Of a stretch of DNA of 64,000 nucleotides, positions 1 to 64,000 are shown in pieces. The stretch lies in IMG/VR virus record IMGVR_UViG_3300045988_110853, positions 132,077 to 196,076 of that record. One strand, 5' to 3'. Numbering within the stretch: the first letter of the stretch is position 1; each line of letters opens with the position of its first letter. This stretch comes from a virus. The notes below the pieces were generated by a model. The model saw only the letters and a list, made by a program, of their open reading frames with translations, had not been told where the DNA came from and ran no database searches. The position numbers were made by a program, and so were the translations under genes.

Positions 1-211
1 CAATACCATCCATTTTTTTAAATGTAATTCCTAAAAAAATTGCGTCATAATCAATATTAGAATTAATTAATTTTTCAGGATCAGTAAATTTATATACATA
101 ACCTGGTAAATTAAATTCTTTAAAATACTAATTTATTATTTCTTCCAATGAATCATTTTGCTAATCGCTATTGTCGCAAACACCTACAGTAAAAATTTTA
201 ATCACCTTCAT
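1..211 (-). CDS. Hypothetical protein, N-terminal part only; the gene runs off the window start. Two in-frame TAGs are read through.
   Basis: Minus-strand ATG at 209-211 opens a frame (MKVIKIFTVGVCDNSD.QNDSLEEI...) that stays open to position 1 when TAG is sense. Confidence 0.3.
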
Positions 212-457
212 TTTTATTTATTTTTAGAAAAAATTTCTCTATCTTTATATTTTTCTATATTATAATTATACAAAAATTTTTAAATATTGTAAAATAAAAA
301 ATTATAAAGTGTCAAATTTATTTAATTTTAAGTAAGTGAAATTTTTATCCAAAAAGTGTTAGTATTTATATTATATTTATACAAAATAAAAATTATATAA
401 TAATGAGAGAAAAAGATAAAAAAACTTTTTACTACTATATTTTTCGGAGGTAATAAC

Positions 458-901
458 ATGAATACTTATGGTTATCCTTAGCAGTATCAACCAATAGGCA
501 ATAGACCTGTTTATGGAACAACTGCTACACCTGTGATTCAAAACAATACTGTATAGCGAATTAGACCAGTAGCATCTTTAGATGAAGTTAGAGCTATGAA
601 TATTGATTTTGATGGTTCAGTTTTTTATTTTCCTGATTATGCCAATCGTAGAATCTATACAAAACAAATAAATATGGATGGAACAGCTTCTATTAATATG
701 TATGAATTAAAAGAAATTCCAAATTCTTCTTAGTCTAATAATGATTATATAACACGAGAAGAATTTAATACTACTTTAACTTCTATTAAAGAAGTATTCG
801 CATAGATTATGGGATCTAATAACGCGGTTGCGCCGTCTTAGGAATCGGGTTAGCCAGCTCAATAGCAATCAACAGAGAGCAAACCGCAATTTAATTTTTA
901 A
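458..901 (+). CDS. Hypothetical small late protein with 7 in-frame TAG codons in 147 codons; ends at TAA.
   Basis: GGAGG RBS at 447-451, ATG at 458. Coherent frame interrupted only by TAG; TAA at 899-901. Not in the ORF track because of the TAGs. Confidence 0.45.
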
Positions 902-913
902 GGAGAGTTTCAA

Positions 914-1162
914 ATGACACAATCGATGAATCCAATGCAAATTATTGCTATGATTAAAAACGGTCAAAATCCATAGCAATTAGTTTTATCTATGCTTGAA
1001 AATCAAATGGGTGGAACGCCAATGGGCAATAATTTATTACAAATGGCACGGAACGGTCAATCCGATGACATTGAAAAATTTGCTCGTAATTTGTTTGAAT
1101 CAAGAGGTTTGAATTTCGATAAAGAATTTAATAGTTTTAAGTCCCAAATGGGGTTTAAATAA
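914..1162 (+). CDS. Hypothetical small protein (82 aa) with one in-frame TAG at 974-976.
   Basis: AGGAGAG RBS followed by ATG at 914; reads ...NGQNP[TAG]QLVLSMLENQ...; TAA stop. Confidence 0.45.
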
Positions 1163-1188
1163 ATAAAATTATAGAAAGAGGTTTTGTT

Positions 1189-2074
1189 ATGTTTAATTAC
1201 AATTATCCAATGAGCACGCCGAGTTATTCATTATCTGACATTGCTGCGGCTTCTGGGAACGGCTATCGTAATAATGATGGCGGAATGTGGGGAGACGGAG
1301 CTTGGTGGATTATTATCCTGTTCTTATTCTGCTTCAATGGTTGGGGCGGTAATGGCTGGGGTAATAATGGTGCTAATGGTTCTGGTTTCCAAGGCACTAC
1401 AACCCGCGAAGAATTAAACTATGGTTTCGATATGAGTGATCTTAAATCTGGAGTCAATGGTTTAAGTTCTAGCCTTTGTAATGGTTTTAGTGGAGTAAAT
1501 ACTAATCTTTTAAGTGGTTTCGCTAATCTTGCTGAAACTAATAATGCTAATACTCGTGCTTTACAGAGCGATATCTGTAATATGGGTATGAATAATATGC
1601 AGAATACCTTTAGTATTACTCAAGCCATTAATGCTGATACTGTTGCTGGTATGTAGAATACTAATAATTTAACTCAGCAATTAAATAATATGGCAGCTAC
1701 TAATGCTCAATGTTGCTGCGAGAATAAACAGTTAATTCAGTCTAGCTTTGCTGATCTTAATTACAATCTCGCTAGTATTGCTTGCCAGAATCGTTAGACT
1801 ACCGTTGATGGTGTCCGCGATATTATTGACAACAATAATGCTAATATGCGTTCTATTCTTGACTTCCTTGTTCAAGATAAAATTGAGACTCTTACCAGTG
1901 AAAATAGCACTCTTAAAAATTAGATTTCTCAAAATCTTCAAAATGCTTATCTTATTGATCAGTTGTCTCCAAAAGCAACTCCTGCTTATATTGTTGCTAA
2001 TCCTTATACTGGTGTTAGTTATACTAGCTATGGATGCGGATATGGTTCAGGATGCGGTTGCAATTCCTGATTGA
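1189..2074 (+). CDS. Gly/Asn-rich protein with one transmembrane segment (about 295 aa). Three in-frame TAGs; TGA stop. Possibly structural.
   Basis: Track ORF 1189..1656 continues in frame through TAGs at 1654, 1795 and 1921 to TGA at 2072. Contains hydrophobic WWIIILFLFCF and GWGGNGWGNNGANG repeats. Confidence 0.5.
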
Positions 2075-2091
2075 AGAAAGAAGGTTAAATT

Positions 2092-2514
2092 ATGGAAATA
2101 ACGGCTAATGCTTTACAATCAGTTGCTACTGGTTCTAATGTAGTATTCACTAACACAGCTGTTGCTGGAAACTGTTCCATACTGTATCGCGAGGGTAGTG
2201 GTTTAGTTACCCTCCGCGGTCTTACGAACGGTCAGCGCAGAGCTCGTTTCCGCATTTCATTTGGAGGTAATATAGGACTTCCAACTACTGGAACTGCGGG
2301 GGCTATTTCTTTGGCTATAGCCATTAATGGAGAGCCAGTTACTACTTCTACAATGATTTCTACTCCTACGGCTACTGGACAGTTTAATAATGTTTCACGT
2401 GCTTTATTCCTCGATGTGTTAGGCGGTTGTTGCACTCAAATTAGTATTGAAAACACGAGTTCATAGGCTATTGATGTTGAAAATGCCAGCTTAATTATCG
2501 AGAGAGTGGCATAA
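2092..2514 (+). CDS. Hypothetical protein (140 aa) with one in-frame TAG at 2464.
   Basis: Track ORF 2092..2466 extended through TAG to TAA at 2512; GGT-rich RBS upstream. Confidence 0.45.
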
Positions 2515-2527
2515 GGAGGTTTTTTAA

Positions 2528-3073
2528 ATGTGTGATAAATTCCAAGAAATTAAAAAGCAATTATTAACTCAAGTAGAAAGCCAAATGGCTCATTTAGAAT
2601 GTGTTGATACAAAGGAAATGGGCGAAGTAATAGATATGATAAAAGACCTTGAACAGGCTATTTATTATTGCACTATTACTGAAGCTATGAATGAATTACC
2701 TGAAACCACACATTATTATACTGAAAAATATAAATCTCCTCATAAAAAAAGAATTTATAAACCCATGACATATGATTATGATTGGGAAGATTATGATTAT
2801 GATGAACATGAATATGAGATGCCAACGAGTGGGAAATCTCATGAAACCCATGATAGCAGAGAGGGCCGTAGCGGCGTCCACAGAAAGATGTATATAGAAG
2901 CCAAAGAACTTCATAAAGATAAAAGCGTTTAGATAAAAGAGTTAGACAAGTATCTTCAAGAATTAAGCTCTGATATAGTAGAAATGATTGAAGATGCTTC
3001 TAATGATGAACGTTCTTATATGGAGAAGAAAATCTAGGCTTTAGCATCTAAAATTGGATCTATGAATGGTTAA
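2528..3073 (+). CDS. Hypothetical acidic protein (181 aa) with two in-frame TAGs.
   Basis: Track ORF 2528..2932 continues through TAGs at 2930 and 3035 to TAA at 3071; RBS GGAGG at 2515. Confidence 0.45.
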
Positions 3074-62711: not shown

Positions 62712-62788
62712 TGGAGGCAAGGGTGAGATTCGAACTCACGAATACCGGCTTTGCAGACCGTCCTCTTAAACCACTTGAGTACCTTGCC
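62712..62788 (-). tRNA. tRNA-Cys (anticodon GCA), 77 nt including an encoded CCA.
   Basis: Manual fold: acceptor GGCAAGG/CCTTGCC, D-arm CTC-AAGTGGTTTAA-GAG, anticodon loop CTGCAAA, T-arm GTGAG-TTCGAAT-CTCAC, discriminator U, CCA. One A-G mismatch at the top of the anticodon stem. Confidence 0.6.
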
Positions 62789-62798
62789 ATATAAAAAA

Positions 62799-62831
62799 AT
62801 GAGACTTTTATTTATTTAATAAAAGTCTCAT
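62799..62831 (-). terminator. Hairpin between tRNA genes.
   Basis: aatgagactttt / aaaagtctcatt. Confidence 0.4.
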
Positions 62832-62907
62832 TTGGTGCGGTTGGAGGGACTTGAACCCTCGGCCAATAGCTTAAAAGGCTACTGCTCTACCACTGAGCTA
62901 CAACCGC
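62832..62907 (-). tRNA. tRNA-Lys (anticodon UUU), 76 nt including CCA.
   Basis: Acceptor GCGGTTG/CAACCGC, D-arm GCTC-AGTGGTA-GAGC, anticodon loop CTTTTAA, T-arm GAGGG-TTCAAGT-CCCTC, discriminator A, CCA. The anticodon stem has a U-U mismatch and a 2-nt connector. Confidence 0.55.
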
Positions 62908-63289
62908 ATAAAAACAAGACGCTCTTCTTTTTAAATTTCATTACAACATAAAAGATCTGTTGCTGGATGCGTCTTTAATAGTTATTTATAACCTAACCTG
63001 CTCTCTTAATTTTTTAGTTTTTTCAAACAATCCTCCAAAGAGAACAAATCGTCTATTTTCTAATATAATTTTCATATAAACGACTTTAAATTCTAGAGCC
63101 AAGCCATTTATATTACTTATTATATCATACTCATAGACCAACAAGCATTTGATTTTACATCAATCCTTTTAGTAGAAACTTAAAATAAGTTAATAGCACT
63201 GGCGAACCAGTAAAAAGAATTTGCTGTATGGCTCTATGTTAGTTAATTAATCAGGCATCGCGATTTGTCATAGACCGAATTAATAACTA

Positions 63290-63364
63290 TGGAGCAAGTG
63301 AAGGGGATCGAACCCTCATTCTCGGCTTGGAAGGCCGATGCACTAGCCATTGTACTACACCTGC
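63290..63364 (-). tRNA. tRNA-Gly (anticodon UCC), 75 nt including CCA.
   Basis: Acceptor GCAGGTG/CACTTGC (one G-U), D-arm GTAC-AATGGCTA-GTGC, anticodon stem TCGGC/GCCGA with loop CTTCCAA, T-arm GAGGG-TTCGATC-CCCTT, discriminator U, CCA. Confidence 0.65.
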
Positions 63365-63487
63365 GTAAGCATTTTCTTTATATTGTTGAAAATGCTAAAC
63401 AATCAATAAAGAGAATAAGAATTGAAAAAAATTTTGTACATTTTATATATTTATTATATATTAAATTTTTAAAAATGTCAAATTTTC

Positions 63488-63799
63488 TTATTTCCTAATG
63501 TAATAACGCATATAATCTTGATATGCTTTTTCACGAGTAGGAAATTCATAATTTAAATAAGGATATACTTGCCAACGATACCAACGTGAAATCTCATTTT
63601 TATAAAAAGTTTCAAAATCACCTTCTATGGTATAATAATCACAAATATCATAAGAACAAAAAATTTTTTTATATTCTTTATGATTATAAGTTTCTTCAAA
63701 ATTTTTTAGTTTTTGACGAACTTTTTTATTTGCGTATCTCTTATATCCGCGATCTTTGCGGTCGCCACTATAAGGTGTCTTTTTTCTACTTCTACTCAT
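63488..63799 (-). CDS. Hypothetical basic protein (103 aa).
   Basis: Track ORF; Lys/Arg/Tyr-rich. Confidence 0.3.
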   Translation of the reverse strand: MSRSRKKTPYSGDRKDRGYKRYANKKVRQKLKNFEETYNHKEYKKIFCSYDICDYYTIEGDFETFYKNEISRWYRWQVYPYLNYEFPTREKAYQDYMRYYIRK

Positions 63800-63876
63800 T
63801 CTTTTAACCTCCTTTAAAAGATGTTAAAAGATACTAATACGATGACCCATTGGACTCACTCCTTATATTTTATTAA

Positions 63877-63960
63877 TGGTGCGGGCGACGAGACTCGAAC
63901 TCGTACGAGGGTTCACCTCATGGGATTTTCTTACTACTCTATGTTACCATAGCCACATTT
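63877..63960 (-). ncRNA. tRNA-like 3' module (perfect T-arm, 7-nt acceptor 3' strand, discriminator A, CCA, long variable-arm-like hairpin) with no matching 5' acceptor strand in the window. Could be a truncated or intron-containing tRNA, or a tRNA-like structured RNA.
   Basis: Minus strand reads ...TGAGGTGAACCCTC GT ACGAG-TTCGAGT-CTCGT CGCCCGC A CCA. The required 5' partner GCGGGCG is absent between here and position 64000. Confidence 0.3.
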
Positions 63961-64000
63961 CTGTGTTGTAGTCTGGAGTACGTCTTTACCATATCTTATT

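Follow-up and report, generated by a model that had tools for sequence, protein, structure and literature searches.

Reassignment of the stop codon TAG has already been described in phages of the gut. Borges et al. (bioRxiv 10.1101/2021.08.26.457843) reported TAG-to-glutamine phages that infect Firmicutes and Bacteroidetes using the standard code and that fall into the clades Lak, crAss-like, Jade, Sapphire and Agate; among the clades reported are ones whose genomes measure about 150-210 kb. In these phages 26-71% of the genes are recoded; the recoded stops are enriched in structural, lysis and homing-endonuclease genes and variable within the replication machinery; and no more than 40% of the genomes have a detectable TAG suppressor transfer RNA (tRNA). 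For crAss-like phages, proteomics has verified the TAG-to-glutamine assignment (Peters et al. 2022; PMC9523058), and Babkin et al. 2023 (PMC10607447) described phAss-1 (the proposed Phassvirus), a 136-kb phage with suppressible TAG codons in 41 open reading frames (ORFs) and three suppressor tRNAs. Here a 64-kb stretch of a viral genome (positions 132,077 to 196,076 of IMG/VR record IMGVR_UViG_3300045988_110853; termed here the window) is analysed for the reading of its in-frame TAG codons, for the residue inserted at them, for the tRNA that may decode them and for their distribution among genes. The explanation that best accounts for these features jointly, to which a probability of roughly 0.92 is assigned, is that the window belongs to a gut phage using genetic code 15, in which UAG specifies glutamine, is decoded by a suppressor tRNA, and is avoided in early genes. 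As such it is a well-supported further example of the recoding already described, and it fits the model published by Borges et al. and Peters et al.

The gene map was built from stop-to-stop ORFs in which only TAA and TGA were taken as stops, and was annotated with Pfam and PHROGs; the principal features are collected in Table 1. Comparisons drew on relatives in IMG/VR, namely about 17-20 contigs of about 97-197 kb each at 92-95% nucleotide identity and more distant groups at about 80%, 75% and 55-65% identity. Mapped in this way, the window (32.4% G+C) takes on a compact, phage-like arrangement, with plus-strand genes at 458-3073 and minus-strand genes at 3419-62568. Its 57 genes (17,286 codons) contain 62 in-frame TAG codons, spread over 22 genes, and no in-frame TAA or TGA; they terminate in TAA (47 genes) or TGA (10 genes) and never in TAG, and in relatives the same stop positions keep TAA or TGA. 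These counts bear out the claim of a first-pass annotation of the window that TAG is a sense codon here and that TAA and TGA are the true terminators. Re-predicting genes with TAG as sense, as that annotation had proposed, raised the greedily computed coding density from 76.7% (code 11) to 88.3%, a gain of 11.6 points under code 15, as against 1.5 points under code 4 (78.2%, with TGA as sense).

If the TAGs were instead true stops, then the split genes would be pseudogenes, products of sequencing or assembly errors, or proteins made in two parts, and a list of ORFs called with code 11 does give the halves as separate ORFs. The comparative data refute this alternative, whose probability is next to nil. 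At 56 of the 62 sites TAG also occurs in at least one independently assembled relative; TAA and TGA are absent in frame; the TAGs alternate specifically with glutamine codons; and conservation runs through each TAG within single hidden Markov model or tblastn alignments. Pfam yields single-stretch matches that cross TAGs in 10 families, among them the DnaE finger domain (665-826, over residue 758), NRDD (122-751) and Phage_lysozyme2 (3-165, over six TAGs), and a single tblastn alignment with 38.6% identity covers 99% of DnaE against the SPbeta YorL and Enterococcus VRE9-type polymerases. The frame breaks that might have spoken for degraded genes were looked for, and no frame shift was found at any TAG, the homology being continuous throughout. 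Thus, in place of the non-conserved positions, mixed stops and frame breaks that mark pseudogenes or misassemblies, there is TAG only, in frame and kept across independent assemblies.

The conserved proteins said to be full-length only when TAG is translated were recovered in the families named, with Pfam matches that are mostly single across the TAGs. The TAG coordinates given for them are all correct (on the minus strand, except in gene 458-901), and the contrast drawn between seven TAGs in the 147 codons of that gene, seven in the endolysin and one in the 1337 codons of DnaE holds. A few details call for amendment: the RecJ-like nuclease, credited with four TAGs, has six within the ORF that starts at ATG and a seventh upstream of that ATG; the RuvC-like resolvase gene was recovered, but its assignment is weak (Pfam E=0.0044, under the curated cut-off); and the radical SAM protein matched Radical_SAM and Fer4_12 only, no SPASM domain being detected as such.

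On the evidence of codon-level alignments of the window's genes with about 40 related IMG/VR contigs, UAG is a glutamine codon (i.e., genetic code 15). At the 57 alignable TAG sites of the window, the alternative codon in relatives is CAA at 24, CAG at 8, GAA at 6, AAA at 5 and GAG at 5, with a few singletons. Conversely, 40 of the window's 495 alignable glutamine codons (8.1%) are TAG in some relative, versus 36 of 15,356 other codons (0.23%), which corresponds to an odds ratio of 37 (p=3e-40). CAA exchanges with TAG as frequently as CAG does, though it is two mutations away from TAG, which argues for selection on the residue rather than for mutational proximity. In tblastn comparisons, moreover, glutamine is the commonest non-stop residue at TAG columns in all four identity bins, from at least 90% down to below 50%.

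Individual sites tell the same story of glutamine. All 18 close relatives have CAA at the NrdD site at 7936, whose column holds glutamine in PDB structure 8p23; the NrdG column holds glutamine in 18 relatives and TAG in 31; the methyltransferase site at 61692 is CAG or CAA in 9 of 9 relatives; the Dda-like site at 14607 is CAA in 19 of 20; and the 'YVG-X' column of the GIY-YIG domain holds glutamine in 41. The DnaE site at 11200 is CAG or CAA in 19 relatives, AAT in 7 more distant ones and TGG in 1. The single TAGs of DnaE, NrdD and the methyltransferase are peculiar to the window's genome and look, in these alignments, like recent drift from glutamine codons to TAG. With TAG at about 11% of the window's glutamine positions, the comparisons show it behaving as a third glutamine codon, which genes gain and lose through drift between it and CAA or CAG; the proposal to align the merged proteins with homologues, and to read off the residue at each TAG, accordingly returned glutamine.

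That TAG might encode another residue (pyrrolysine, glutamate, lysine, tyrosine or tryptophan) is highly improbable. ARAGORN does call CUA tRNAs 'tRNA-Pyl', a label given from the anticodon alone, and glutamate and lysine codons are the next commonest partners of TAG. Codon by codon, however, the exchange with TAG stands at 8% for CAA/CAG and at no more than 1.5% for GAG, AAG, AAA and GAA, and tyrosine and tryptophan codons are not among the top 14; the parity of CAA with CAG likewise favours glutamine; and columns of conserved glutamine (in NrdD, NrdG and the GIY-YIG motif 'YVGQ') coincide with TAG. As for pyrrolysine decoding, Pfam scans of the window's proteins returned no pyl-related family (pylS, pylBCD), and the TAG columns correspond to glutamine.

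The insertion of glutamine would fall to an amber suppressor tRNA (anticodon CUA) encoded by the phage. No such tRNA lies within the 64-kb window according to ARAGORN or to Rfam at gathering or permissive thresholds, both of which find Cys-GCA, Lys-UUU and Gly-UCC only, in agreement with the first-pass annotation. These three tRNAs form the proximal end of an array that in relatives extends past the window and includes a CUA suppressor. Four relatives of about 80% identity (L072, L077, L078 and L080) have a CUA tRNA, and their array, which lies directly past the window's right end, reads Pro-Arg-Val-Sup-Tyr-Thr-Ser-Gly-Lys-Cys (with Sup the suppressor). The suppressor pattern from these relatives has no match in the window's own 92-95% group, in which an 11-kb tail-fibre module is inserted in the tRNA array; the suppressor of that group was located by walking through the module. 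Contig 3300029860_000005 (L165), which is 91-96% identical to window positions 55.3-63.9 kb, carries upstream of the module a CUA tRNA at 42-114 (Rfam tRNA score 52 bits), followed by tRNA-Tyr, and this CUA tRNA differs from that of the 80% relatives. The same tRNA recurs, in an array with the order Ile-Pro-Val-Sup-Tyr, in contigs 118866 and 132576, of which the former (IMGVR_UViG_3300045988_118866; L021) is the window's best-aligning relative. Because of synteny with the 92-95% relatives, the suppressor tRNA of the window's own genome would lie about 14 kb beyond position 64000; the search for it elsewhere in the genome thus succeeded in relatives and, for the window's genome itself, by inference only. 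A search for a release factor 2 gene, also proposed, came up empty: neither the window nor, in relatives, the surroundings of the suppressor tRNA yielded a release factor, an aminoacyl-tRNA synthetase or an amidotransferase.

The phage might conceivably lack a suppressor of its own and depend instead on leaky read-through by the host, on a suppressor of the host or of a co-infecting element, or on some other unrecognised factor. The window does lack a CUA tRNA, scans with the exact pattern match a suppressor in only three contigs of the close group, and such suppressors were found in just 40% of TAG-recoded phages (bioRxiv 10.1101/2021.08.26.457843). This alternative is nevertheless improbable: the best-aligning relative, 118866, has the suppressor in a syntenic array; in L176 the adjacent tRNA-Tyr sits right at the edge of the sequence examined; and seven TAGs in one endolysin require efficient suppression. 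Decoding by the phage's own suppressor tRNA is therefore retained below.

Several smaller elements accompany the tRNA array in relatives. Theta ribozymes, which are minimal ribozymes resembling that of hepatitis delta virus (HDV), adjoin phage tRNAs (Kienbeck et al. 2024; PMC10879173), and this context has a counterpart, weak and outside the window, in L165: directly 3' of the suppressor tRNA, positions 115-169 match RF02682 (the F. prausnitzii HDV-like ribozyme model) over its full length, at 26 bits against a gathering threshold of 44 (E=0.017). No ribozyme-like match adjoins the window's three tRNAs. A small conserved ORF of about 39 residues (MICRTKEHYENRIAKLYSHGEVMNQRLINKMKRKLRKLN), of unknown function, lies between tRNA-Val and the suppressor, directly upstream of the latter (L177:6355-6480; L178:1190-1318). 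Within the tRNA array of L074, a RAGATH-33 RNA (7991-8119; 124.5 bits, above gathering) corresponds to about window positions 63987-64115, at the right edge, and a 140-nt Rfam tRNA match (9195-9334), which ARAGORN misses and which bears an insertion of about 68 nt, sits between tRNA-Gly and tRNA-Cys, roughly in the place of the window's tRNA-Lys.

TAG is far from evenly distributed. Recoding had been called genome-wide, which overstates it: TAG occurs in 22 of the 57 genes (39%), and the 17-gene block at 43608-60658 has no TAG against 123 CAA/CAG codons, versus 62 against 405 in the remainder (Fisher p=4e-7). The block encodes SPFH, three metallophosphoesterases, an AAA_33 kinase, NADAR, Macro, RNA ligase, RlaP, cREC_REC, a protein resembling the major vault protein (MVP-like) and a DUF2828/DUF7788 protein. 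In relatives its genes are nearly TAG-free as well, with one TAG site (in the MVP-like gene, in one or more relatives); distinct TAG sites across relatives number 11 in the endolysin, 9 in the RecJ-like gene, and 9 and 7 in the GIY-YIG genes. On these comparisons, the block would consist of early genes that can be read under the standard code. The replication genes have between 0 and 6 TAGs each, with none in the genes for GyrA, GyrB, ligase, the primase-like protein, AAA_24 and PhoH.

The further claim that TAG is densest in late and lysis genes stands in part. It is right for the endolysin (16 per 1000 codons) and for the structural genes that flank the window in relatives: directly left of the window, L173 has an ORF of more than 2305 residues with 30 TAG against 42 glutamine codons, followed by tail-fibre-like genes, from which it follows that the structural module is TAG-rich. 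It is wrong in that the highest densities (per 1000) belong to gene 458-901 (48), of unknown function, in which half of the glutamine positions are TAG and whose TAGs are retained in 12 relatives, with glutamine at some; to the phrog_6721 gene (23); to the GIY-YIG homing endonuclease (22); and to the 3419-3847 (21) and RuvC-like (18) genes, and in that a second lysozyme gene is TAG-free. The small transmembrane protein next to the endolysin also has no TAG.

A promoter motif of the sigma-70 type recurs in the window. A consensus scan identified a 29-nt motif, consisting of TTGATT or TTGACA, a 17-nt spacer with runs of T and A, and TATAAT, of which there are 10 copies in the exact form and 12 in the relaxed form, all on the minus strand, against chance expectations of 0.19 and 0.05, respectively. 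Seven copies fall within the TAG-free block, and often a copy directly follows a terminator-like hairpin, so forming terminator-promoter cassettes between genes. Outside the block, copies stand ahead of further genes that are all TAG-free, namely 61957-62568, the gene for DNA ligase, and the winged-helix gene with 24590-25534 and AAA_24; of the first protein genes downstream of a copy, 10 of 11 are TAG-free, versus 61% of all genes. In relatives the motif recurs throughout the tRNA arrays; in L072 it precedes the suppressor tRNA by 86 nt, and in L177-L179 it lies upstream of the tRNA-Val that comes before the suppressor. These consensus matches suggest that both the TAG-free genes and the tRNA array, the suppressor included, are transcribed from host-type promoters. 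Visual inspection of the regions upstream of TAG-rich genes, for a promoter class of their own, turned up nothing convincing.

Taken together, this layout fits a gating of late translation by suppressor supply. The host would use the standard code, and genes needed before the suppressor accumulates would have to avoid TAG, which may be why the RNA-repair and anti-defence block, and the genes behind the promoter motif, are TAG-free. The yield of a protein with n TAGs would fall roughly as (suppression efficiency)^n; the replication genes, mostly with 0-2 TAGs (6 in the RecJ-like gene), could be made early, and production from the genes for the endolysin (7 TAGs) and the homing endonucleases (4-5), and from the flanking structural genes (up to 30), would have to wait for efficient suppression. 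A more elaborate version, in which the number of TAGs sets a graded translational timer with three tiers rather than a simple early/late switch, is put forward tentatively and is, as it stands, rather doubtful. Its first tier would comprise the TAG-free RNA-repair and anti-defence block and the tRNA array with the suppressor, under one host-type promoter family; its second, the replication genes; and its third, coming last, the TAG-dense lysis, homing-endonuclease and structural genes. The tRNA-repair genes of the first tier might protect phage tRNAs, including the suppressor, from host anticodon nucleases. Since replication genes contain TAGs, such a timer would require the code change to work before DNA replication, unlike in the crAss-like and Agate representatives in the literature.

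The TAG-free block might instead reflect recent horizontal acquisition or codon optimisation, rather than early expression under the standard code. Within it, the genes for SPFH (43608-44993), RNA ligase (50445-51818), the MVP-like protein (56519-59014) and DUF2828/DUF7788 (59132-60658) have an atypical codon usage, which is found also in 24590-25534 (minus strand) and is shared in part by 23434-25534 (minus strand): their G+C content at third codon positions is 0.36-0.42, versus about 0.18 elsewhere; CAG is much preferred over CAA and AAG over AAA; CTT is preferred; and TTA, CTA and TCA are almost absent. This usage gives rise to long spurious antisense ORFs on the plus strand (for example, 43629-44978, 50277-51824, 56519-58783 and 59114-60778), and it could reflect either high expression or foreign origin; the nearest cellular homologues of SPFH, at about 50-55% identity, come from Lachnospiraceae, Roseburia, Agathobacter, Blautia and Oscillospiraceae. 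Against this, the remaining 13 genes lack TAG as well, with the codon usage that is ordinary for the phage; the block is essentially TAG-free in relatives down to about 80% identity; and the promoter motif, present within it in seven copies, would also drive tRNA genes. Acquisition or optimisation of the block as a whole is thus unlikely, though it retains appreciable weight, and early expression under the standard code is preferred.

Certain observations weigh against the overall interpretation given here, namely that of a code-15 phage with its own suppressor and with TAG-avoiding early genes. The window has no CUA tRNA, its presence in this genome being deduced from relatives, and contigs 118370, 126226, 131075 and 126669 have no exact match to either suppressor pattern. 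The amino acid presumed to be loaded onto the suppressor tRNA is assigned from sequence comparison. The promoter motif also precedes a gene with two TAGs (22765-23331). The RecJ-like gene (6 TAGs) and the phrog_6721 gene (5) are TAG-rich, yet not obviously late, and the second lysozyme-domain protein (16641-17480) lacks TAG. Finally, the absence of TAG from the SPFH, RNA ligase, MVP-like and DUF2828 genes could stem from recent acquisition or from selection for high expression.

Set beside the phages of Borges et al., the window resembles them in having in-frame TAGs within conserved genes, TAG at glutamine columns, low G+C content, a genome of about 200 kb and partial recoding (39% here); in probably having a suppressor tRNA(CUA), as close relatives do; and in that structural, lysis and homing-endonuclease genes are TAG-enriched and replication genes variably recoded. 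Some of those clades infect Firmicutes. It differs from their crAss-like and Agate representatives, whose replication genes keep the standard code, in that its genes for DnaE, NrdD, DnaB and the RecJ-like and Dda-like proteins carry TAG, and neither the window nor the surroundings of the suppressor tRNA show a 'code-change module' of release factor 2 or tRNA synthetase. The crAss-like phages of Peters et al. share the TAG-to-glutamine change in the human gut but infect Bacteroidota and have other polymerases, and their recoding was verified by proteomics, whereas here it is known from sequence. By its description, phAss-1 is likewise a gut phage of more than 100 kb with recoded TAG and suppressor tRNA genes of its own.

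In practical terms, the standard code splits or truncates about 40% of this phage's genes, including those for DnaE, NrdD, DnaB and the endolysin; gene prediction on this genome should use translation table 15. The analysis adds to the recoded phages a large Clostridia-type lineage with many public genomes, in which promoter-proximal genes with no TAG, replication genes with few, and lysis and structural genes with many are juxtaposed. It introduces no new principle; what it contributes is the assignment of TAG to glutamine, a suppressor tRNA located in close relatives, and a TAG-free, early-type block with a shared promoter motif. Given the conservation of that block and the motif, the published idea of timing by suppressor supply becomes testable in this lineage, which is a convenient comparative system for it.

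Table 1. Principal features of the window, with window coordinates and in-frame TAG codons
Feature	Position	Strand	Remarks
phrog_21718 gene, function unknown	458..901	+	7 TAGs in 147 codons (48 per 1000)
Three genes, function unknown	1189-2070, 2092-2514, 2528-3073	+	3, 1 and 2 TAGs
phrog_4105 protein and weak RuvC-like protein	3419..4437	-	3 TAGs and 3 TAGs
NrdG and NrdD	6071..8832	-	TAG 6113 in NrdG motif RGSRN-X; TAG 7936 in NrdD
DnaE-type DNA polymerase III alpha	9460..13473	-	1337 aa; TAG 11200-11202 = residue 758, finger domain
Dda/RecD-like superfamily 1 helicase	14394..15587	-	TAGs 14949 and 14607
RecJ-like DHH/DHHA1/OB nuclease	17534..19282	-	6 TAGs
DnaB-like helicase	21243..22775	-	TAG 22599, N-terminal domain
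phrog_6721 protein and coiled-coil GIY-YIG protein	26001..27954	-	5 TAGs and 4 TAGs
GIY-YIG homing endonuclease	33297..33986	-	5 TAGs in 229 codons
Endolysin (Phage_lysozyme2 + Amidase_2)	37125..38426	-	7 TAGs
Radical SAM protein	40584..41876	-	3 TAGs: 41856, 41661, 41019
TAG-free block	43608..60658	-	17 genes, 4454 codons, about 17 kb
Eco57I-type N6-adenine methyltransferase	60786..61964	-	TAG 61692, upstream of NPPY
tRNA-Cys(GCA), tRNA-Lys(UUU), tRNA-Gly(UCC)	62712..63364	-	ARAGORN/Rfam
Promoter motif, perfect sigma-70 consensus TTGACA-17-TATAAT	63453-63481	-	upstream of tRNA-Gly
Promoter motif, further copies	62634-62662, 60735-60763, 59054-59082, 56435-56463	-	
Promoter motif, further copies	52215-52243, 48828-48856, 47869-47897, 46790-46818	-	
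Promoter motif, further copies	29775-29803, 25965-25993, 23362-23390	-	

The genome to which the window belongs, that of an uncultivated phage, measures about 190-197 kb, and the phage probably infects Clostridia of the gut. One relative contig of 197,006 bp has its DnaE gene spanning the contig ends, which implies that the genome is circular or circularly permuted. Besides the genes for nucleotide metabolism (NrdD/NrdG, dUTPase and guanylate kinase), the window encodes a large replication set (the DnaE-type polymerase, the Dda/RecD-like helicase, the RecJ-like DHH nuclease, DnaB, an AAA_24 ATPase, an ATP-dependent DNA ligase, GyrA- and GyrB-like topoisomerase subunits and RNase H), two GIY-YIG proteins, PhoH/PIN, the radical SAM protein, the endolysin and the Eco57I-type N6A methyltransferase; no terminase lies within its 64 kb. 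A megablast of the DnaE region against GenBank phages (INPHARED) gave no match, and no close relative was found in INPHARED; a search of IMG/VR with an exact 51-mer from the window gave no match either. The closest annotated DnaE homologues (YorL) are the distant ones, already mentioned, of SPbeta-like and Enterococcus VRE9-like phages. The hosts of these phages are Bacillus and Enterococcus, which suggests that the window's lineage belongs among the phages of Firmicutes; on this homology and that of SPFH, the host is likely to be a member of the Clostridia with the standard code. Two relatives were deposited within metagenome-assembled genomes, L181 (CAMELE010000001.1; 163,874 bp) under 'uncultured Mollicutes bacterium' and L180 (JALFQD010000403.1) under 'Clostridium sp.'; these labels are probably a binning artefact of a low-G+C phage. 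In L027, L054, L055, L059, L064 and L068 the N-terminal 757 residues of DnaE span 3.1-3.4 kb, versus 2.27 kb, a length difference that hints at an inserted intron, intein or homing endonuclease; no such interruption is present in the window's copy.

Further observations concern individual genes. The TAG-free block can be described as an RNA-repair and anti-ADP-ribosylation island, with the AAA_33 protein being polynucleotide-kinase-like. Its MVP-like protein has both shoulder (PF11978; E=1.5e-21) and repeat (PF17795) domains and is encoded next to the DUF2828/DUF7788 protein; an MVP homologue is unusual in a phage. That neighbouring gene (59132-60658) was considered as a TROVE protein, for which Pfam gives DUF2828/DUF7788 instead, and gene 26001-26663 was considered as ThyX-like and has no Pfam match. 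In the coiled-coil GIY-YIG protein, TAG 27160 falls inside the conserved YVG-Q motif, and the GIY-YIG homing endonuclease gene sits between the gyrB-like gene and the RNase H and gyrA-like genes. The three plus-strand genes at 1189..3073 lie, in relatives, downstream of tail-fibre-like genes. Gene 42208-42912 (minus strand) encodes a protein of 234 residues, of which the first 140 consist almost entirely of short Cys/Gly/Ser repeats (CSGxC and similar) and which has no Pfam match; the segment 40545-43491, containing this gene and the radical SAM gene, is missing from L180 and L181. Finally, Phage_lysozyme2 occurs in two proteins, namely one with an N-terminal signal or transmembrane segment and no TAG (16641-17480, minus strand) and one fused to an amidase with seven TAGs (37125-38426), and the two may be expressed at different times.

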